From Candidatus Magasanikiibacteriota bacterium (GTDB lineage: Bacteria > Patescibacteriota > Patescibacteriia > Magasanikbacterales > UBA922), in assembly GCA_041674805.1 (NCBI GenBank), contig JBAYVA010000002.1, positions 184,294-248,293 of the forward strand: a stretch of 64,000 bases of DNA, in the 5' to 3' direction. Below, in pieces: positions 11,916 to 44,997 of the stretch. The notes under the pieces are model-generated. The model saw only the letters and a program-made list of their open reading frames with translations, did not search any database and was not told the origin of the DNA. A program made the translations under genes and the position numbers. Positions within the stretch are counted from its first letter, which is position 1. Every line of letters begins with the position of its first letter.

Positions 11916-11932
11916 CATATTTTTAAATTTAG

Positions 11933-12023
11933 CGGAGAGAGAGGGATTCGAACCCTCGGTCCCGATATGATCGGGACACCGCTTTTCGAGAGCGGCACCT
12001 TCAACCAACTCAGACATCTCTCC
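11933..12023 (-). tRNA. tRNA-Ser (anticodon CGA), a type II tRNA with a long variable arm.
   Basis: Reverse complement GGAGAGATGTCTGAGTTGGTTGAAGGTGCCGCTCTCGAAAAGCGGTGTCCCGATCATATCGGGACCGAGGGTTCGAATCCCTCTCTCTCCG. The acceptor GGAGAGA/TCTCTCC pairs fully, the anticodon loop is CTCGAAA, the variable stem is TCCCGAT/ATCGGGA and the T-arm is GAGGGTTCGAATCCCTC. Confidence 0.85.
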
Positions 12024-12041: not shown

Positions 12042-13295
12042 TTAGTTTGTATAATTAATTATTTTTTTTGATAAACTTAAATATATTAAAAACCAAAACA
12101 GAATGGCTAAATCGTTTTTTATATAAGGTGAATCTACTAAACCTGTTATAAGTAACATTAGTAAACTTAATAATAAAAAGTTATTATAAATATTTTTTTC
12201 TTTGATATTTTTGTGTAATATATATACTAAGATTATTATAAATGATAGCAAACCTATTAATCCAGTATTTACCCAAATTGTCAAAAATATGTTGTGAGGA
12301 TGATGGTATATTTCAATATATTCACCATTTACTTTTTGATGATATGTTTTTATTTCTTGGCTATAAGAACCTAAACCACTTCCTTTTATTGGATGATCTT
12401 TTAAATACTCTAAAGTTTCTTTCCAAATTCCAATTCTAATTTGTCCAGATCTGTCTTGTAGTATTAATTCTGTTTTTATATTTTGTAATTTTGGTAAATT
12501 AAAAATTAATAGTGATGAAAATATTGTTAATATTATGATAATCCAACGTGTTTTTTTATAGAATAGAAGAATTAAAAATATTGCACTGAAAATACTTACC
12601 AAAGCTCCTGTAGACTTGGCAAAGAATATAGCAGGTAATGATGTAATTATAAATAAAGTTCCTAATAAAAAAGGCCATGATTTCACTGAGTGGTTTTTTA
12701 GATTATATAGTGCTATTGCAAAAATTGGTGCCAAAAATAATCCAACTCCATTTGGAAATCCATACCATGCTGTTACTCTGTAAGTATTAAGATTTTCCCA
12801 AAAAGCATATGGTACAAAAAATCCTGTAAAATGTTGATAAATAGCAAATAAGGATGTGGCTAGTCCAGACATTAATAAACCATTTATTATATATTTTTTT
12901 ATATCTATAGATATATTTGTAATTATAAAAAATAGTATTATTGGTTCTAGATAAAAAGCTTTCCATTCACCTAATGCTTGTTTTGTGTTGTGGTTAAATA
13001 ATATAGATACAGTAGCAAAAAATAAAAATAATAAAATTGAGATGTATAATAATTTATTTTTTTTAAAATTTATTTTTAAATTATTTATAATTTCATTTTT
13101 ATATTTTATAAAACTAATTATAATTAGTATGATAATTTGTAATTCTAAAAAAGTTGTTGGAATTTCTAAAAAATTAAAACGTAATAGATAAGTAGGTAAA
13201 AACAAAGCTAATAAAAAAAATGAGTATTCAATTTTTTTGAAACTAATAATTGTAAAAATACTTAAATAAACAATTGTTAAAAACCACATTATCAT
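12042..13295 (-). CDS. O-antigen ligase / Wzy-like polysaccharide polymerase family membrane protein (paralog 1).
   Basis: 12 predicted TM segments; 'HPHNIFLTIWVNTGLIGL' and 'LVDSPYIKNDLAILFW' motifs are shared with the gene at 13732..15006. Confidence 0.65.
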   Translation of the reverse strand: MIMWFLTIVYLSIFTIISFKKIEYSFFLLALFLPTYLLRFNFLEIPTTFLELQIIILIIISFIKYKNEIINNLKINFKKNKLLYISILLFLFFATVSILFNHNTKQALGEWKAFYLEPIILFFIITNISIDIKKYIINGLLMSGLATSLFAIYQHFTGFFVPYAFWENLNTYRVTAWYGFPNGVGLFLAPIFAIALYNLKNHSVKSWPFLLGTLFIITSLPAIFFAKSTGALVSIFSAIFLILLFYKKTRWIIIILTIFSSLLIFNLPKLQNIKTELILQDRSGQIRIGIWKETLEYLKDHPIKGSGLGSYSQEIKTYHQKVNGEYIEIYHHPHNIFLTIWVNTGLIGLLSFIIILVYILHKNIKEKNIYNNFLLLSLLMLLITGLVDSPYIKNDLAILFWFLIYLSLSKKIINYTN

Positions 13296-13466: not shown

Positions 13467-13555
13467 AAATGAGAGAGGGATTCGAACCCTCGGTCCAGCT
13501 TGCGCAGAACAACTGATTTCGAGTCAGTCCCATTCGACCACTCTGGCATCTCTCC
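13467..13555 (-). tRNA. Second tRNA-Ser(CGA)-like gene whose 3' acceptor strand is replaced by unrelated sequence; possibly a pseudo-tRNA.
   Basis: Reverse complement GGAGAGATGCCAGAGTGGTCGAATGGGACTGACTCGAAATCAGTTGTTCTGCGCAAGCTGGACCGAGGGTTCGAATCCCTCTCTC, but then ATTTATACC follows instead of TCCG. The D-arm, anticodon arm (CTCGAAA) and T-arm are canonical. The last three acceptor pairs would be A-A, G-U and G-U. Confidence 0.55.
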
Positions 13556-22554: not shown

Positions 22555-22592
22555 ATTTTTTCATTAAAACATGAAAACATAAAAACATTAAA

Positions 22593-22622
22593 ACAATCCC
22601 GATAAAATTGGGATTGTTTTTT
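22593..22622 (+). terminator. Rho-independent terminator after recA.
   Basis: caatccc-gataaaatt-gggattgtttttt. Confidence 0.7.
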
Positions 22623-22693
22623 GTTTGATAATTTTTTAACCACATAGACTTTTGACTTTATAAACTTGTAGACTTTATGAACTTCTAAAAACG

Positions 22694-40447: not shown

Positions 40448-40720
40448 ATGCCTAAATTATTTTTAGCTTATCTTGGTGGTAAAATGTTACCAAATAGAAT
40501 AGGTGAAGATCATGAAGTGGTGCTGGTGGTGGCTGAAGATAAAGTCGAGGCCAAAGCCAAAGCACAAGCCAAGTGGAAGGGTGAAGGAGCCGCACATTTG
40601 GACATGTTAACTGAGGTTGATATTGTTGATAATTATGTTATAAATTTGGAGAAGACTATGAAACAAGATAAGATGATAAGTGACGATGATTGGCATGCTT
40701 TAAATGATGTAGATAAATAA
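40448..40720 (+). CDS. Hypothetical protein.
   Basis: A 90-aa ORF followed by a strong terminator. Confidence 0.4.
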   Translation: MPKLFLAYLGGKMLPNRIGEDHEVVLVVAEDKVEAKAKAQAKWKGEGAAHLDMLTEVDIVDNYVINLEKTMKQDKMISDDDWHALNDVDK

Positions 40721-40838
40721 TTTGACAGTTTGTGACTATTATAGTAAAGTATTAAAGCTATGACACAATTATTTAACAATAATAATTTGAATAATAATAT
40801 CAGCCAATAAGTGGGTGTCATTTTTGTAAATAGAAAAT

Positions 40839-40870
40839 AACCCGCTTAAAGAAGCGGGATTTTTATTTTA
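40839..40870 (+). terminator. Rho-independent terminator.
   Basis: aacccgctt-aaaga-agcgggatttttatttt. Confidence 0.7.
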
Positions 40871-40876
40871 AAATAT

Positions 40877-41038
40877 TCCGAGGTAGTTTAGTGGTAGAAT
40901 CCCGATAAGGGCTCCCAGATAGTTCAGTGGTAGAACGCAGCGCTGTTAACGCTGATGTCGTAGGTTCGAATCCTACTCTGGGAGCTTTTATCGGGACTGT
41001 TAACGCTGATGTCACAGGTTCGAATCCTGTTCTCGGAG
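40877..41038 (+). other. Disrupted or split tRNA-Asn-like gene whose 5' part (40877-40900) and 3' part (40996-41038) flank the intact tRNA-Asn. The insert is bracketed by the inverted repeat TCCCGATAA/TTATCGGGA.
   Basis: The 5' part TCCGAGGTAGTTTAGTGGTAGAAT has an acceptor and D-arm. The 3' part ACTGTTAACGCTGATGTCACAGGTTCGAATCCTGTTCTCGGAG has the anticodon loop, T-arm and an acceptor strand complementary to TCCGAGG. The 5' strand of the anticodon stem is missing. Confidence 0.5.
40913..40984 (+). tRNA. tRNA-Asn (anticodon GTT).
   Basis: TCCCAGA TA GTTC AGTGGTA GAAC G CAGCG CTGTTAA CGCTG ATGTC GTAGG TTCGAAT CCTAC TCTGGGA G. The cloverleaf is fully canonical with a 7-bp acceptor stem. Confidence 0.9.
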
Positions 41039-41180
41039 CAAACTCAAAATTTTCCTAATGAAACATTTATATACAAACAATAATAATCAAAATAATATTT
41101 TTAGTTATGGGATGTAGTTTATTGTTGAAATTTGTATAAATTAATAATTTCGTGATAAGCGGGTTTTTTTATTAAACAGT

Positions 41181-41777
41181 ATGGAAAATATAATAATATC
41201 AAGTTTTACAATTGGTTTTATAGCGGCTGCTTTACCTGGAGCCGTACAGACTACCATTTTGCAGAGTTCTATTATTGGTAAGGCTAAGAGTAGTCTCAAA
41301 TTTGCGTTGGGAGCCTCCACAATGGATGGTTTGTATTTGGGATTAGCTTATTTTGGTTTAGTACAAATACTCATCAGTTATCATTGGTTGAAAGTAATAA
41401 TTGGTATTTTAGGATCACTATATATTGGATATATTGGTATAGTTGGTCTGAGGGACAGTTTAAAGAACACAGATGCAAAAGAAATAAGAAATAAATCATT
41501 TTTTAGTGGTTTTGTGCTAGTTTTATTACATATACCCACATTACTATATTTTGTCAGTGTCGCCGGTACTTTTTTTAAAAACGGAGTGGATTTGTTGACG
41601 GTAATTTTGTCTTGTATAGCCTTGAGTTTTGGTGCAATGGCTTGCTTTATTTTTGTCTCTTTAATTGGAAAAATGATAAACAAATTTGGTTCTAGATGGT
41701 TGGTCAAAACATTTAATATATTGGCTTCATTAATTTTGATATTTTTTGCTTTGAAAGTTATTTGGCAATTGTTTTAG
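41181..41777 (+). CDS. LysE/RhtB-family amino-acid exporter.
   Basis: Six TM helices, starting 'MENIIISSFTIGFIAAALPGAVQ'. Confidence 0.6.
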   Translation: MENIIISSFTIGFIAAALPGAVQTTILQSSIIGKAKSSLKFALGASTMDGLYLGLAYFGLVQILISYHWLKVIIGILGSLYIGYIGIVGLRDSLKNTDAKEIRNKSFFSGFVLVLLHIPTLLYFVSVAGTFFKNGVDLLTVILSCIALSFGAMACFIFVSLIGKMINKFGSRWLVKTFNILASLILIFFALKVIWQLF

Positions 41778-41842
41778 TATATTTTAGGTATTTGTTTTTT
41801 TATGTTACCATTACAATATCTAAATTTATATTTTTTTCACCT

Positions 41843-42412
41843 ATGAAAAACGCCATAATAATTCATGGCAGACCAACCAAAGAAATTTATTATGATGCAA
41901 GTAAAACTTCATCTAGTAATTTTGCTTGGATTCCTTGGCTACAAAAACAATTGATAATAAAAGATATCAAAGCCGATACACCGGAAATGTTTTTGGCCTA
42001 CGAACCGCAATATGAGATTTGGAAAGAAGAATTTGAGAGGTACGAGGTTAACGAAGAAACAATCTTAGTCGGACATAGTGCTGGTGGGGGATTTTTGCTC
42101 AGATGGCTGTCTGAAAATAAAAAAATTTTTGTTAACAAACTTGTTTTGGTTGCGCCTTCAGTTGATCCATTTGAAAAAACGGGATTGGAATTTCATAAAT
42201 TTGCCATAGACAAAGATTTGAGTAACAGAGTCCGGAAAATGATTCTCATCATGAGCGACAAAGATTCTGACGGCATAATGGAAACGGCGAATATACTTAA
42301 GAAAACATTCCCAGATATAGTATATAAAGAATTTCCTGGCTATGGACATTTTATTCCTCAAGATATGGGAAAGAGCGAATTTCCTGAGCTACTAGAAGAA
42401 ATTTTGAGATAA
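41843..42412 (+). CDS. Alpha/beta serine hydrolase (YdeN/RBBP9-like).
   Basis: 'IIIHGRPTK' and the nucleophile elbow 'LVGHSAGGG'. The start is taken at the internal Met. Confidence 0.6.
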   Translation: MKNAIIIHGRPTKEIYYDASKTSSSNFAWIPWLQKQLIIKDIKADTPEMFLAYEPQYEIWKEEFERYEVNEETILVGHSAGGGFLLRWLSENKKIFVNKLVLVAPSVDPFEKTGLEFHKFAIDKDLSNRVRKMILIMSDKDSDGIMETANILKKTFPDIVYKEFPGYGHFIPQDMGKSEFPELLEEILR

Positions 42413-42559
42413 TTTAGGTAAATATTCAAGTAAAAACAGTCCCGATTTTGTCGAGGCTGTTTTTTATAATTTTCCACTTTTTCGACTTGTTGACTTTTAT
42501 TTTTTTGTGCTATAATAATATTATACAATTTTAGTATAATTTATCTAACCACAAATCAT

Positions 42560-42994
42560 ATGTCAAAAGTCAGCACTTATATCAATTTTCCTCGCAACAC
42601 AGAGGAAGTATTCAATTTTTATAAATCAGTTTTTGGGACAGAATTTGAAGGTGAAATCAATCGTATGGGTGATATGCCTTCACAAGAAGGTCAACCTGCA
42701 ATAAGTGAAGAAGACAAAAATTTGGTAATGCATGTAGCTTTACCAATTTTGGGTGGACACGTACTTAGGGGTACTGATGCTCCAGAAAGTATGGGTTTCA
42801 CAGTAAATATGGGCAACAATATTTATATTAATTTAGAACCAGATACTCGCGAAGAAACCGAACGACTTTTTCAAGCTCTTTCTTCTGGCGGAGAAGTGGA
42901 GATGTCGTTAACAGATATGTTTTGGGGTGATTACTTTGGTTCTTGTACTGATAAGTTTGGTGTGAAATGGATGTTCAATTGTTCTCAAAAATAG
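42560..42994 (+). CDS. VOC/glyoxalase-family protein (PhnB-like).
   Basis: 'YINFPRNTEEVFNFYKSVFG' and 'DYFGSCTDKFGVKWMF'. Confidence 0.65.
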   Translation: MSKVSTYINFPRNTEEVFNFYKSVFGTEFEGEINRMGDMPSQEGQPAISEEDKNLVMHVALPILGGHVLRGTDAPESMGFTVNMGNNIYINLEPDTREETERLFQALSSGGEVEMSLTDMFWGDYFGSCTDKFGVKWMFNCSQK

Positions 42995-43037
42995 AATTAG
43001 TCTTTATACTGCAGATTGAGGAATTGGAAATTGGATT

Positions 43038-43071
43038 CTCCCTCTCCTCGTAGGAGAGGGCTGGGGTGAGG
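43038..43071. repeat. Partial third copy (terminal hairpin only) of the GC-rich palindromic element.
   Basis: ccctctcctcgtaggagagggctggggtgagg, against the family end cccctcctaataggaggggctaggggaag. Confidence 0.6.
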
Positions 43072-43127
43072 TTCGTTTAGAAAAAATAATTCTCTCAAAT
43101 TTTAATTCATATTTAATCAGTAATCAT

Positions 43128-43583
43128 ATGAAAAAACTATATTTTTCCATATTTATAAGTGCCTCACGCGAAAAAGTCTGGGAAACGATGCTTTCTGATT
43201 CTTCTTATCGTGAGTGGACAAAATCTTTCAATCCTGGTGGTTCATATTATAAAGGGGATTGGAGTCAAGGTTCTAAGATATTATTTTTGGGGCCAAATCC
43301 AGATGGTAGTGGTGAAGGTGGTATGGTTTCTCGCATCAAGGAAAATCGTCTTTATGAATATATTTCTATTGAACATTTGGGTATTATAAAAAATGGTGTG
43401 GAAGATACTACTAGTGAAGAAGTAAAAAAATGGACACCAGCTTTTGAGAATTATATTTTTAGAGAAAAAGATGGTGGCACAGAAATTGTCGTGGATATAG
43501 ATAGTAACGAAGAATACGCCAAAATGTTTTCTGAGATGTGGACAAAAGCTCTGCAAAGTCTAAAAGAATTGTGTGAAAAATAA
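43128..43583 (+). CDS. SRPBCC (AHSA1/START-like) domain protein.
   Basis: 'FSIFISASREKVWETMLSDSSYREWTKSF'. Confidence 0.55.
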   Translation: MKKLYFSIFISASREKVWETMLSDSSYREWTKSFNPGGSYYKGDWSQGSKILFLGPNPDGSGEGGMVSRIKENRLYEYISIEHLGIIKNGVEDTTSEEVKKWTPAFENYIFREKDGGTEIVVDIDSNEEYAKMFSEMWTKALQSLKELCEK

Positions 43584-43623
43584 TTTCGTATTCCTTAAAA
43601 CTTAGTGCCTAATATTTAATTTT

Positions 43624-44997
43624 ATGACTGCAGAACACAATATAAAAGATTTGACAGTGGGAAATATTCCTAAACATCTTTGGTCACTAGCTTGGCCGAT
43701 GATGCTCTCCATGTTTTTTTATACACTCTATAGCATTGTTGATACTTTTTGGGTTAGCAAATTATCCACCGAGGCTATTGCCGCTGTCAGTATCTCGCAG
43801 ATTACTCTGTTTGTGATGATTGCCCTTAGTATGGGTATTGCCGTTGGTTCAGGAGTCTTTATGGCTATGAGTATTGGTGCTAAGAATAAACCAGAAGCTG
43901 AGAGAATCTTAGGACAATCGTTTGTCCTGGCTGCTATTTCTGGTGTATTTTTTACTATCATTTCTTTGCTTTTCAAGCATCAATTATTGACTGTTTCAGG
44001 AGCTACTGGTCTTATTTATGAGCCGGCTCTGGAATATTTCACTGTTACTGCTGGAGGCTCTATTCTTTTTTTCTTTCTCATGAATGTTATGTTTGCTTTT
44101 AATTCCGAAGGTGACACTTTTACCTTGACCAAATTGTTTGCTGTTTCTACTTTGGTCAATGTGGTGCTTGATCCTATCATGATTTTTGGTAAATTTGGCA
44201 TGCCGGCTCTGGGAATTTCTGGAGCAGCTTATGCGACACTTATTTCTCAAGTCGTTTTTTTGGTTTTAGGTATTATTGTTTTGTCTGGCAAAAAAAGAAA
44301 TATTAGATTTTCTTTTCACAATTTGAGTTTCAATTTTGCGTCTGTCAAACAAATTTTGAAAATAGGTATTCCTGCTTCTCTCACCCAAGTTATTAATCCA
44401 ATTGGTCTGGCTGCTCTGATTTTTATTACTTCTCAAATTTTTTTGGAAGCTGGAGCCATTGCTTTTAGTCTGGTTTTTCGTGTAGAATTTTTTGCTTTTT
44501 TGCCAGCCGCTGGTTTTGGTTTTGCTGCTATGGCGATGATTGGTCAGAGTATGGGTGCTGGCAAACTGGAGCGCGCGCAAGCAGTTTTTAAAAAAGCTAT
44601 TGTCTTAGGATTTTTGTCAGCTTCTGGTTTTGGCGTGTTGGCAATATTATTTGGTGGTTATATCGTCGGTATTTTTACCACAGATCCTCAAGTTATGAAG
44701 TATTCTTTAATGTATTTGTGGATTGTCGGTGGTACTTATGGCTTTTTAGCGGCGGCGATGATTGAGGCTAGTGTTTTTCAAGCTATGGGACGTTCTTGGC
44801 CGGGCTTTTGGATTTTCTTTACCAAGTTCATGTTTATTTCTTTGCCTCTGGGTTATGTTTTGACTAGTGTTTTTAAATTTGATATTTGGGCTATGTGGAC
44901 TGCGATTGCCTTATCCAATGTTGTCGTTGCTGTCTTTGGTTATTTGTGGAGCCGGAGGACTGTTGAAACTAAAAAGACAATGGAAGTATTAATGTAA
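43624..44997 (+). CDS. MATE-family efflux transporter.
   Basis: 12 TM helices with two-fold internal repeat symmetry, starting 'LWSLAWPMMLSMFFYTLYSIVDTFWVSKL'. Confidence 0.8.
   Translation: MTAEHNIKDLTVGNIPKHLWSLAWPMMLSMFFYTLYSIVDTFWVSKLSTEAIAAVSISQITLFVMIALSMGIAVGSGVFMAMSIGAKNKPEAERILGQSFVLAAISGVFFTIISLLFKHQLLTVSGATGLIYEPALEYFTVTAGGSILFFFLMNVMFAFNSEGDTFTLTKLFAVSTLVNVVLDPIMIFGKFGMPALGISGAAYATLISQVVFLVLGIIVLSGKKRNIRFSFHNLSFNFASVKQILKIGIPASLTQVINPIGLAALIFITSQIFLEAGAIAFSLVFRVEFFAFLPAAGFGFAAMAMIGQSMGAGKLERAQAVFKKAIVLGFLSASGFGVLAILFGGYIVGIFTTDPQVMKYSLMYLWIVGGTYGFLAAAMIEASVFQAMGRSWPGFWIFFTKFMFISLPLGYVLTSVFKFDIWAMWTAIALSNVVVAVFGYLWSRRTVETKKTMEVLM

Follow-up and report, generated by a model that had tools for sequence, protein, structure and literature searches.

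Why does a complete tRNA-Asn(GTT) gene lie between the two halves of a second, broken tRNA-Asn gene? This layout occupies positions 40877-41038 of the window, by which we mean the whole 64,000-nt stretch of a Candidatus Magasanikiibacteriota genome analysed here (contig JBAYVA010000002.1). A preliminary description, made from the letters of the window, had offered three readings: a recombination scar between tandem tRNA-Asn copies, a tRNA-derived insertion with short terminal inverted repeats, or a split or permuted tRNA whose halves stay annealed once RNase P/Z has released the inner one. The comparative data presented below favour the second. Positions 40900-40996 would form a 97-bp non-autonomous DNA cassette consisting of a complete tRNA-Asn gene and the inverted repeat TCCCGAT...ATCGGGA, and we consider it probable, though by no means certain, that such a cassette was inserted into the cognate tRNA gene and replaced it.

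The nested unit in the window

The nested layout is real: inspection of the sequence confirmed that a tRNA-Asn(GTT) gene sits inside a broken second tRNA-Asn (Table 1). For the nested unit ARAGORN called a single tRNA, tRNA-Asn(gtt) at 40913-40985, and the Rfam tRNA family (RF00005) matched 40913-40984 over its full length with 74.3 bits (E 2e-16; gathering score 29) and without broken or non-canonical pairs. With all four arms of the cloverleaf, anticodon GTT and discriminator G73, the inner gene is a canonical bacterial tRNA, in agreement with its original identification as a canonical tRNA-Asn(GTT).

A repeat search found direct repeats of the inner gene on both sides, of 23 nt at 87% identity in the outer 5' part and of 43 nt at 88% in the outer 3' part. 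Local alignment to the inner tRNA gave scores of 31 and 61 for these two parts, the maximum of 200 shuffles being 24. The 3' remnant contains the anticodon loop, the 3' strand of the anticodon stem, the variable loop, the T-arm, the acceptor strand and G73. The two flanking halves first described are therefore present, with the correction that the 3' part begins at 40997 (C32), A40996 belonging to the cassette arm; T40900 is common to the outer 5' remnant and the left arm. Only the 5' strand of the anticodon stem, some 6-7 nt, had been said to be missing from the outer halves, and this holds: the missing nucleotides are 25/26-31.

The bracket around the inner tRNA is formed by TCCCGATAAGGGC and GCTTTTATCGGGA. 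The 9-bp repeat reported earlier is perfect but extends further, to arms that pair at 13 positions, inner discriminator included, two of them being G-T (G-U in RNA). Together with the inner acceptor stem, the 13-nt arms make up an inverted repeat of 20 nt with 90% complementarity (40900-40919 / 40977-40996). The whole unit was predicted to fold as nested cloverleaves, with the outer acceptor and T arms closed and a 20-bp coaxial helix (minimum free energy -69.6 kcal/mol, z = -5.8).

The outer acceptor strands pair with each other as had been claimed, although not perfectly: six pairs are Watson-Crick and one (7:66) is a G-T wobble. The outer and inner copies differ by compensatory changes at 4:69 (G-C in the outer, C-G in the inner), 49:65 (A-T and G-C) and 50:64 (C-G and T-A). 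Because of these compensatory differences and of the mutual pairing, the outer halves are, judging from their sequence, the two ends of one once-functional gene and not derivatives of the inner gene.

The 460-bp intergenic region was 100% identical in two assemblies from different samples, ENA ERZ27247358 (a 133-kb contig) and Logan SRR6484325. Since the layout is identical in these two other independent assemblies, an assembly artefact was ruled out, the same sequence being present in three assemblies. Several assemblies of related species with nests also agree on the layout.

Empty sites and other nests at the orthologous locus

Loci of relatives were searched by a genome scan with the outer 5' half as query; the bracket was not used. 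L-numbers denote individual loci from relatives' genomes or metagenome contigs. The TrpRS of the window is 100% identical to a protein assigned to Candidatus Magasanikbacteria. Upstream of the tRNA-Asn position there are pgk, chorismate mutase, trpS, DUF378 and rhodanese genes, and the synteny is kept in relatives. The scan recovered an intact tRNA-Asn in four more distant Magasanikbacteria (L004, L005, L007, L009) and in one other metagenome-assembled genome (MAG). The gene of these four Magasanikbacteria and the outer halves of the window differ only by C13->T, the sole difference in the 5' remnant, and by C66->T in the 3' remnant; a third difference, C25->T, arises only if T40900 is counted as outer sequence and not as arm.

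Five species with a TrpRS 80-88% identical to that of the window are roughly equidistant from it. A single intact tRNA-Asn, that is an empty site, was found in L153-156 (TCCCCTG-type) and in L157 and L161 (TCCCGGA-type). The window carries a nest with a TCCGAGG-type outer gene and a TCCCAGA inner gene. In L096, L158 and L167 the outer halves and breakpoints are the same as in the window and the inner gene is TCCGAGA; the right arm of L096 is identical to that of the window. L165 and L166 have the breakpoints of the window, a TCCCGGA-type outer gene and a TCCTTGG inner gene, with extra palindromes in both outer halves and degenerate arms (TCCCTAT.../...GTCAGGA, three mismatches). A further nest, on metagenome contig L086, combines a TCCCCTG-type outer gene with a TCCGAGA inner gene between near-identical arms (AAGCGC / CTTTT). 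The junctions GGTAGAA/arm and arm/CTGTT are common to the nests of the window, L096/L158, L165/L166 and L086.

A further nest, found without using the ends, came from L008, a Parcubacteria MAG, in which TCCCGAT/ATCGGGA ends surround a different inner tRNA-Asn. Its breakpoints differ from those of the window, nt 28-42 being lost. One site hence shows empty states and at least four combinations of outer and inner gene that share their junctions, with L008 as a fifth combination having other junctions.

The preliminary description had proposed to look in related genomes for an ancestral pair of tandem tRNA-Asn genes. No such pair was seen: relatives carry a single tRNA-Asn at the locus.

Bracketed tRNA genes of other types and in other phyla

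A metagenome collection was scanned for TCCCGAT-N(50-64)-GGTTCRA-N(17-23)-ATCGGGA. At least 120 matches in at least 119 loci were obtained, mostly chance ones in GC-rich coding DNA. Among the matches listed, 22 had an ARAGORN tRNA exactly between the 7-mers, and the bracketed types were Asn, Arg-CCT, Thr-CGT, Thr-TGT, Lys-CTT, Pro-TGG, Glu-CTC, Trp, Val-GAC and Ala-TGC. A phage tRNA-Gln/Met array was a false positive.

Two-sided nests in a broken cognate gene were identified in 11 of the 21 loci scored against shuffles (types Asn, Arg-CCT, Thr-CGT, Glu and Val). These were the window, L096, L086, L119 (the same as L008), L029 (a double nest), L031, L064, L065, L103, L091 and L127. One-sided nests were found in L014 and L057 (types Trp and Lys), and L036 and L037 look nested when inspected by eye. 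L075, L083, L067, L015, L097 and L074 are bracketed without an outer remnant. In the double nest (L029:3290-3480) two outer 5' halves of tRNA-Glu follow each other, with TCCCGAT-ACTTAT after each.

Two of the carriers lie outside the candidate phyla radiation (CPR), so that an initial assumption of a CPR-specific feature was wrong. L091 is Roseivirga-like (Bacteroidota), its HflX being 86% identical to that of Roseivirga pacifica, and L065, a 654-kb contig, was assigned to Margulisiibacteriota by its PBP2. The junction between hflX and tRNA-Arg(CCT) was found in three states. L168, from a genome of 3.86 Mb, has a plain intact gene, an empty site. L091 has a full nest and, in addition, two 'empty' hairpins, TCCCGAT-AGTT-ATCGGGA, that replace parts of the outer D- and T-loops. 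In L169 (R. pacifica, a 4.78-Mb contig), a resolved state, a complete gene comes after a 5' remnant that contains a degenerate hairpin. In L065 the outer tRNA-Thr is complete in sequence, but the cassette and three further palindromes divide it cleanly into four pieces. The relatives L075 and L083 have only one tRNA-Thr there, bracketed but not nested.

Two of the hallmarks of MITEs (miniature inverted-repeat transposable elements) were observed here. Presence and absence at orthologous sites was seen for the tRNA-Asn, Roseivirga tRNA-Arg and tRNA-Thr loci. Conserved terminal inverted repeats were seen in three phyla, with the core present in L008, L096 and L086 and degenerate in L165. Beyond the required 7-mers, 54/67 arm positions are Watson-Crick although the sequences differ. 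Because nearly all of about 30 neighbouring arm-less tRNAs in the same loci are without a strong leader-trailer helix, the arm helix, as far as these sequences tell, belongs to the cassette and is not general to the tRNA genes of these genomes.

No description of nested tRNA genes, of the TCCCGAT palindrome or of tRNA cargo in MITE-like elements was met in full-text literature searches. This agrees with the earlier remark that no such bacterial arrangement had been described; the layout is, however, not unique to this genome but widespread. The feature in the window is one member of a recurrent cross-phylum class, apparently undescribed.

Two side observations concern these loci. In L127 (760-1300) there are tandem tRNA-Arg(CCT) units, each ending in CTTC-ATCGGGA and several having a CCTGCC palindrome at 26/27; ARAGORN called the units of this array tRNA-??? 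with an 'intron'. In R. pacifica (L169:5545-7198) an AbiEii/AbiEi toxin-antitoxin pair lies directly downstream of tRNA-Arg(CCT) and is absent there in L168.

State of the outer copy

The outer gene is, on the evidence of its sequence, unable to decode, because the 5' strand of its anticodon stem is missing. No second tRNA was found in the nested unit by ARAGORN with intron options or by Rfam at E<=10, and artificially joined outer halves gave only a degenerate ARAGORN call at a lowered threshold. Bulge-helix-bulge (BHB) geometry was not found either: the helix of the arms runs on into the junctions without any 3-nt bulge. In the 97-nt insert Rfam gave no intron-family signal besides tRNA. An outer tRNA that contains an intron or is split or permuted was rejected, since its exons, with nt 25/26-31 absent, give no complete cloverleaf; the third of the original readings is thus not supported for a decoding tRNA.

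Marks of a pseudogene were seen in several outer copies. The outer acceptor strands are mismatched in L086, the anticodon loop is lost in L008, and nt 25-57 are lost in L103. Extra palindromes are confined to the outer pieces, in the D-loops of L096 and L165 and in the T-loops of L065 and L091. Partial deletion that leaves a 5' remnant and a complete gene was found in L005, where the remnant of an older copy lies upstream of the complete tRNA-Asn, and in L169.

The leader before the tRNA-Asn locus

The region 40722-40866 may act as a leader-peptide attenuator ahead of the tRNA-Asn locus. It contains a sigma-70-like promoter, a small open reading frame (ORF) rich in Asn codons, a candidate antiterminator and an intrinsic terminator (Table 1). 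Asn-rich small ORFs were found upstream of tRNA-Asn in 11 of the 12 loci checked, for example MKYISLNNNSNNNAPSGM in L008 and MQYLLHNNNNNNKQLISG in L086, each followed by a stop codon. The terminator stem is invariant in nine loci. The antiterminator covaries with the terminator 5' strand (AGCGGGAT and ATCCCGCT in L008; CAGCGGGT and ACCCGCTG in L086), and in an alignment of nine leaders a helix AUGANA/UNUCAU that encloses the leader ORF covaries as well. The literature searched contained no case of a tRNA gene controlled through stalling of ribosomes at the codons that it serves, and attenuation by an Asn-rich leader ahead of tRNA-Asn genes appears to be new.

A relic of a second Asn leader was noticed behind the nest, at 41058-41117 (MKHLYTNNNNQNNIFSYGM and a stop codon); its ending GM before the stop is typical of the leaders of L005, L007 and L008. 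Only the 3' half of a terminator (AAGCGGGTTTTTTT, about 41157-41170) comes next, before the LysE gene. No significant fold was obtained for 41058-41170 (z = +0.6). The relic points to a rearrangement in the past, or to the loss of a second tRNA-Asn unit, at this hot spot.

Table 1. Position and content of the features of the nested unit and its leader (window coordinates).
Feature	Position	Strand	Content and remarks
Sigma-70-like promoter	40722-40750	+	TTGACA-17-TAAAGT; 10/12 consensus matches; position conserved in relatives; putative function
Leader ORF	40760-40810	+	MTQLFNNNNLNNNISQ, stop; Asn codons 7/16; putative Asn-sensing attenuator
Candidate antiterminator	40809-40816	+	AAGTGGGT; overlaps the leader stop codon; can pair with the terminator 5' strand ACCCGCTT
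Intrinsic terminator	40841-40864	+	CCCGCTT-AAAG-AAGCGGG and T-run, directly before the outer tRNA; from terminator scan
Outer tRNA-Asn, 5' remnant	40877-40899	+	TCCGAGG TA GTTT AGTGGTA GAA; acceptor strand and D-arm up to nt 24
Left cassette arm	40900-40912	+	core TCCCGAT and spacer AAGGGC
Inner intact tRNA-Asn(GTT)	40913-40984	+	discriminator G at 40984; presumably the functional gene
Right cassette arm	40984-40996	+	G73, spacer CTTTT and core ATCGGGA; first base is the inner discriminator
Outer tRNA-Asn, 3' remnant	40997-41038	+	CTGTTAA CGCTG ATGTC ACAGG TTCGAAT CCTGT TCTCGGA G

Genes around the locus

Gene content on both sides of the tRNA-Asn unit varies among six closely related species. 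Upstream (40448-40720 in the window), a DUF1543 gene is present in the window, and a flavodoxin gene in L153 and L158; L157 and L161 have no gene there. Downstream, LysE, Ser_hydrolase, glyoxalase, a 151-aa ORF and MatE (41181-44997) separate the tRNA-Asn of the window from the CSD/DEAD-helicase genes, which in L157 and L161 follow the tRNA-Asn almost directly. The tRNA-Asn locus is a recombination hot spot.

Related palindromes

TCCCGAT occurs eight times in the window, where 2.2 copies are expected, and four of the eight copies belong to two tRNA-linked palindromes. A role of TCCCGAT as a DNA-uptake sequence was dropped, there being only eight copies in 64 kb.

The second of these palindromes lies in a tRNA-Ser(CGA) on the minus strand (11932-12023), whose long variable arm is the same palindrome (11960-11976): G-TCCCGAT-CAT-ATCGGGA-C, an 8-bp perfect stem. 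It may represent an 'empty' hairpin insertion that was tolerated at the one tRNA position accepting an extra stem. A second tRNA-Ser(CGA), also on the minus strand (13467-13555) and 1.4 kb from the first, has an ordinary variable arm and a damaged 3' acceptor end, TCTCATT in place of TCTCTCC. A Wzy_C (O-antigen ligase-like) gene (12042-13295) lies between the two. The pair looks like another resident tRNA disrupted by an insert that brought a complete copy and a protein-coding passenger.

Several families of GC-rich palindromes interrupt tRNA genes or remnants at recurrent positions. A 20-nt CCTGCC palindrome follows nt 51 of tRNA-Thr and of tRNA-Val; in tRNA-Arg it sits at 26/27. TCCCG-type hairpins were seen in the T-loop, after GGTTC. 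In three lineages the D-loop of a tRNA-Asn 5' remnant carries, at one and the same position, a TCCGCC/CCTGCC-type palindrome. 'Empty' palindromes of 17-18 bp, and others of 40-45 bp with AT-rich loops, were found alongside cassettes. The palindrome CCTGCCTGCCGGCAGGCAGG was present in L064, L065, L075, L083 and L127. Palindromes of the type TCCCGAC/TCCCGCCG/TCCCGTCG ... CGGGA, with AT-rich loops of 25-30 nt, were present in L014, L065, L075 and L103, and TCCGCC..AAGG..GGCGGA-type ones in L005, L096 and L165.

Terminator-like hairpins with TCCCG-type stems were also seen in these genomes (window 22590-22640 and 42432-42470; L096:3629-3645). The terminator at 22597 reads CAATCCCGAT-AAA-ATTGGGATTG, then TTTTTT, and the hairpin after the GAPDH gene of L096 has TCCCGAT-TTA-ATCGGGA. 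Common hairpins of this TCCCG type may be relatives, or the source, of the cassette ends. The idea that the bracket itself is a terminator was dropped, as no T-run follows the right arm.

A proposed tRNA-replacing cassette

The account that we favour draws directly on the insertion architecture, the empty sites, the recurrence, the intermediates of decay and resolution and the lack of a neighbouring enzyme gene. On insertion the cassette would take the place of nt 25-31 in the anticodon arm of the resident tRNA-Asn. This would destroy the resident gene, its two halves persisting as flanking pseudogene pieces, and the cassette tRNA would take over. Over all loci, left junctions lie at nt 21-35 and right junctions mostly at nt 32-36; the target has lost 0-33 nt, with 7 nt missing in the window and none in L065.

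The cassette has no promoter of its own and lies, in the window, behind a promoter, an Asn-rich leader ORF and a terminator, so it would inherit the expression and regulation of the resident gene. Transcription of its tRNA would begin at the resident promoter and pass the attenuator with its Asn-codon leader, and the normal tRNA end-processing enzymes would free the tRNA from the transcript. A selection filter may operate on such events: an insertion in a single-copy tRNA gene would survive only with a working copy of the same tRNA, and landing in the cognate gene would give the promoter-less cargo its correct expression. The strict identity of cargo and target could be explained in this way, since only cognate cargo would rescue the disrupted gene; recognition of homology would not be required. 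The outer remnant would afterwards be free to decay, to gain palindromes and to be partly deleted, yielding a plain or merely bracketed tRNA. Because remnants would be deleted after replacement, the tRNA sequence at the locus would turn over between related species.

The event is envisaged at the DNA level, catalysed in trans by a nuclease, transposase or recombinase that would recognise the palindromic ends; alternatively, the cassette might spread by uptake of foreign DNA and recombination. We hold a dedicated mobilising enzyme to be less probable than insertion and replacement as such. The claim in its widest form is that selfish, palindrome-ended cassettes of about 100 bp, with a complete tRNA as their sole cargo, kill and substitute the cognate tRNA gene at the anticodon arm. 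They would cause serial tRNA turnover in at least three phyla (Patescibacteria, Bacteroidota and Margulisiibacteriota), served by a trans-acting enzyme that recognises TCCCG...CGGGA hairpins together with tRNA-gene structure. This form seems to us plausible but a little short of probable. In a more radical variant of it, the perfectly conserved outer halves and arms may form a functional chimeric RNA of two tRNAs.

Several results weigh against this account. No target-site duplication was found at the junctions. Neither a catalyst nor a free or donor cassette was found, mobility being deduced from comparative patterns: Pfam detected no transposase, integrase or HNH domain in the window (2-23 kb and 40-61 kb) or among 20 ORFs flanking cassettes in 10 loci, only housekeeping genes, so that no homing endonuclease was seen near the copies either. 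The scan of IMG/VR gave only a coding-sequence family and one phage tRNA array (L040/L133), rejected as a false positive in which TCCCGAT is the acceptor end of the neighbouring tRNA-Gln, and no full-length cassette match was present in PLSDB plasmids or INPHARED phages. A phage or plasmid origin finds no support in these three collections. With only two TCCCGAT palindromes, the 64 kb of the window give no sign of current proliferation. Among arm pairs, G-U outnumbers A-C by five to two, a count compatible with a helix that acts as DNA as well as with one that acts as RNA. The cross-phylum set was picked by exact 7-mers, so the conservation of the core outside the Asn cassettes is partly due to ascertainment, and the few un-nested bracketed tRNAs (L015, L067, L097) could be chance matches.

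The conservation of the outer halves is a further difficulty. Between the window and L096/L158, species that are not sisters, there are no substitutions in the outer halves, the arm cores and the right spacer. Four-fold degenerate sites differ at 0.32 in rhodanese and 0.48 in pgk, and the leader region is about 12% different. The inner tRNA has three compensatory pair changes and the left spacer differs at 3/6 positions. As neutral pseudogene pieces, the outer halves should have diverged. To explain their conservation one must assume that a still-conserved resident gene was invaded recently or laterally, that gene conversion acted between the 43-nt repeats, or that the outer scaffold has a function.

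Other explanations of the nest

The nest may also have spread without an enzyme, having arisen illegitimately once or a few times and having then been passed on by DNA uptake and homologous or microhomology-mediated recombination. The outer tRNA segments would have served as homology arms, and the palindromic arms would be incidental or promote breakage. We regard this as unlikely, although the cargo is always in its cognate gene, as homology-dependent replacement predicts, and the six species, about equally distant from one another, have a patchy distribution of tRNA-Asn types. When the window is compared with L096, moreover, the rhodanese-tRNA segment is more alike than the genes around it, which hints at a recombination tract, and the inner tRNA of the window looks mosaic, its acceptor and T stems resembling L157 and its anticodon stem L096. 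Homology alone seems insufficient because the outer genes of L086 and L165 differ up to the junctions, with some 7-8 nt shared, and yet the junctions are identical; because the same 7-bp ends surround unrelated tRNAs in three phyla; and because 'empty' TCCCGAT hairpins, with no tRNA cargo, are inserted after GTTC in D- and T-loops. The footprint of an integrase, with the downstream 3' fragment as an attachment-site (att) remnant after loss of an island at the tRNA gene, is very improbable. Integrative elements duplicate the 3' part of the target tRNA from the anticodon loop or T-loop, the anticodon loop being a classical sublocation of integrase crossover, and the outer 3' fragment does begin in the anticodon loop; the genes directly downstream (LysE to MatE in the window) differ among relatives as well. 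Integration, however, leaves no upstream 5' fragment and no inverted repeat tightly bracketing a complete gene, and the inner tRNA and the 3' fragment are only 12 nt apart, so that the variable genes come after the fragment and not before it. No integrase was found in the annotated regions of the window, nor any further tRNA-Asn fragment in the window or direct repeat bounding the downstream variable genes. The architecture, a 97-bp insert without an ORF whose ends are inverted and not direct, contradicts this candidate. Hardly credible is a local scar, produced by tandem duplication of tRNA-Asn and two deletions or by mis-assembly of tandem copies. The direct repeats of tRNA-Asn within 160 nt would fit such an origin, which resembles the first reading of the preliminary description. 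Against it stand the three concordant assemblies and those of related species, the single gene of the relatives, the compensatory change at 4:69 by which the outer halves pair and hence are one gene, and the independent recurrence of the layout with its conserved bracket in other lineages and around other tRNAs.

A function at the RNA level would account for the conservation just described. The arms would be a processing or stabilising helix of the inner pre-tRNA and the outer halves a conserved tRNA-like scaffold with an acceptor/T-arm minihelix, either required for maturation or with a role of its own; in a variant, a two-piece tRNA-like RNA would be left after RNases P and Z have released the inner tRNA. 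The absence of substitutions in the outer halves, arm cores and right spacer, the G-U compatibility on the sense strand of the two non-Watson-Crick positions in the arms of the window, the predicted nested-cloverleaf fold and the same hairpin within an apparently functional tRNA-Ser all agree with this. The outer copy, however, lacks a complete anticodon stem and would be unable to decode. The arms of L165 have mismatches and its outer halves palindromes, the outer acceptor of L086 is mismatched, and L008 and L103 are without most of the outer anticodon and T regions. Close relatives carry a tRNA-Asn with neither arms nor outer scaffold, and arm-less neighbouring tRNAs mostly do without leader-trailer helices. 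For bacterial RNase P, a leader paired to the discriminator and trailer is expected to hinder 5' processing. We consider an RNA function quite unlikely and keep it at this low level because the conservation of the outer halves fits invasion, gene conversion and scaffold function alike.

Implications

If replacement by cassettes is correct, tRNA genes, which are among the most conserved genes known, are replaced by tiny cassettes that carry a spare of the gene they destroy. A mobile element would be tolerated in an essential single-copy gene by full complementation, and not by splicing or partial restoration. Differences in tRNA-Asn sequence at one locus between closely related CPR species would be explained, and a new source of tRNA pseudogene fragments and of mis-annotations in metagenome-assembled genomes would be identified. 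The account would also imply an enzyme with specificity for short GC-rich hairpins and for the structure of tRNA genes, an activity that genome engineering could use. Roseivirga is culturable, and with an empty site, a full nest and a resolved remnant known among its relatives, experiments are possible. The Asn leader, if true, would mean that a tRNA gene is regulated by ribosome stalling at its own codons.

Comparison with known systems

Phages, integrative and conjugative elements and genomic islands that target tRNA genes share several properties with the cassette: their insertion site is a tRNA gene, often its anticodon loop or T-loop, and they avoid lethality by bringing a replacement for the displaced part and make tRNA loci recombination hot spots with variable neighbours. 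They are, however, kilobases long and encode a tyrosine or serine integrase, whereas the cassette has 97 bp and no protein. They replace only the 3' part, which results in an intact gene and a distal 3' fragment, whereas the cassette brings a whole tRNA and leaves both halves of its target. Their bounds are direct att repeats, those of the cassette an inverted repeat.

MITEs, repetitive extragenic palindromic sequences (REPs) and their hairpin-forming doublets (REPINs), mobilised by REP-associated tyrosine transposases (RAYTs), and IS200/IS605-derived palindromes are likewise short, non-autonomous, non-coding and hairpin-forming, with conserved ends and insertion polymorphism. In contrast to MITEs and REPINs, the cassette has no target-site duplication, a very low copy number in the window and no transposase or RAYT seen near any of its copies. 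REPs have GTAG or CGTC at the 5' end of the palindrome, and TCCCGAT contains neither; some companion palindromes do contain CGTC/GACG, for example TCCCGTCG..CGACGGGA in L075. We know of no MITE or REPIN with a complete tRNA gene as its loop or with a cognate tRNA gene as its target.

GC clusters of organelles (yeast mitochondrial clusters, hairpins of Volvox and sponges) are also GC-rich hairpins in AT-rich genomes that insert into genes, including those of structural RNAs. Unlike the cassette, they have not been reported with a gene as cargo or as substitutes for the gene that they hit.

Archaeal split, permuted and multi-intron tRNAs (Nanoarchaeum, Caldivirga, Thermoproteales; also Cyanidioschyzon) share with the nest the separated pieces and the flanking helix. 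They are joined to a complete tRNA through a BHB, a splicing endonuclease and a ligase, whereas the nest is bacterial, has no BHB and gives no complete outer product.

A further comparison is with the group I introns found in the anticodon loop, at position 35/36, of the tRNA genes for Asn and Asp in Patescibacteria (PMC13011429). These introns, some of which have homing endonucleases, are selfish insertions in the anticodon region in the same gene family and phylum, with function preserved. Self-splicing saves the gene that they interrupt, whereas with the cassette the interrupted gene is lost and a second complete gene is supplied inside the insert, which is far too short for a ribozyme and in which Rfam finds only a tRNA. 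In homing elements proper, spread depends on endonuclease-driven gene conversion, and the identical junctions seen in different outer genes would be compatible with homing.

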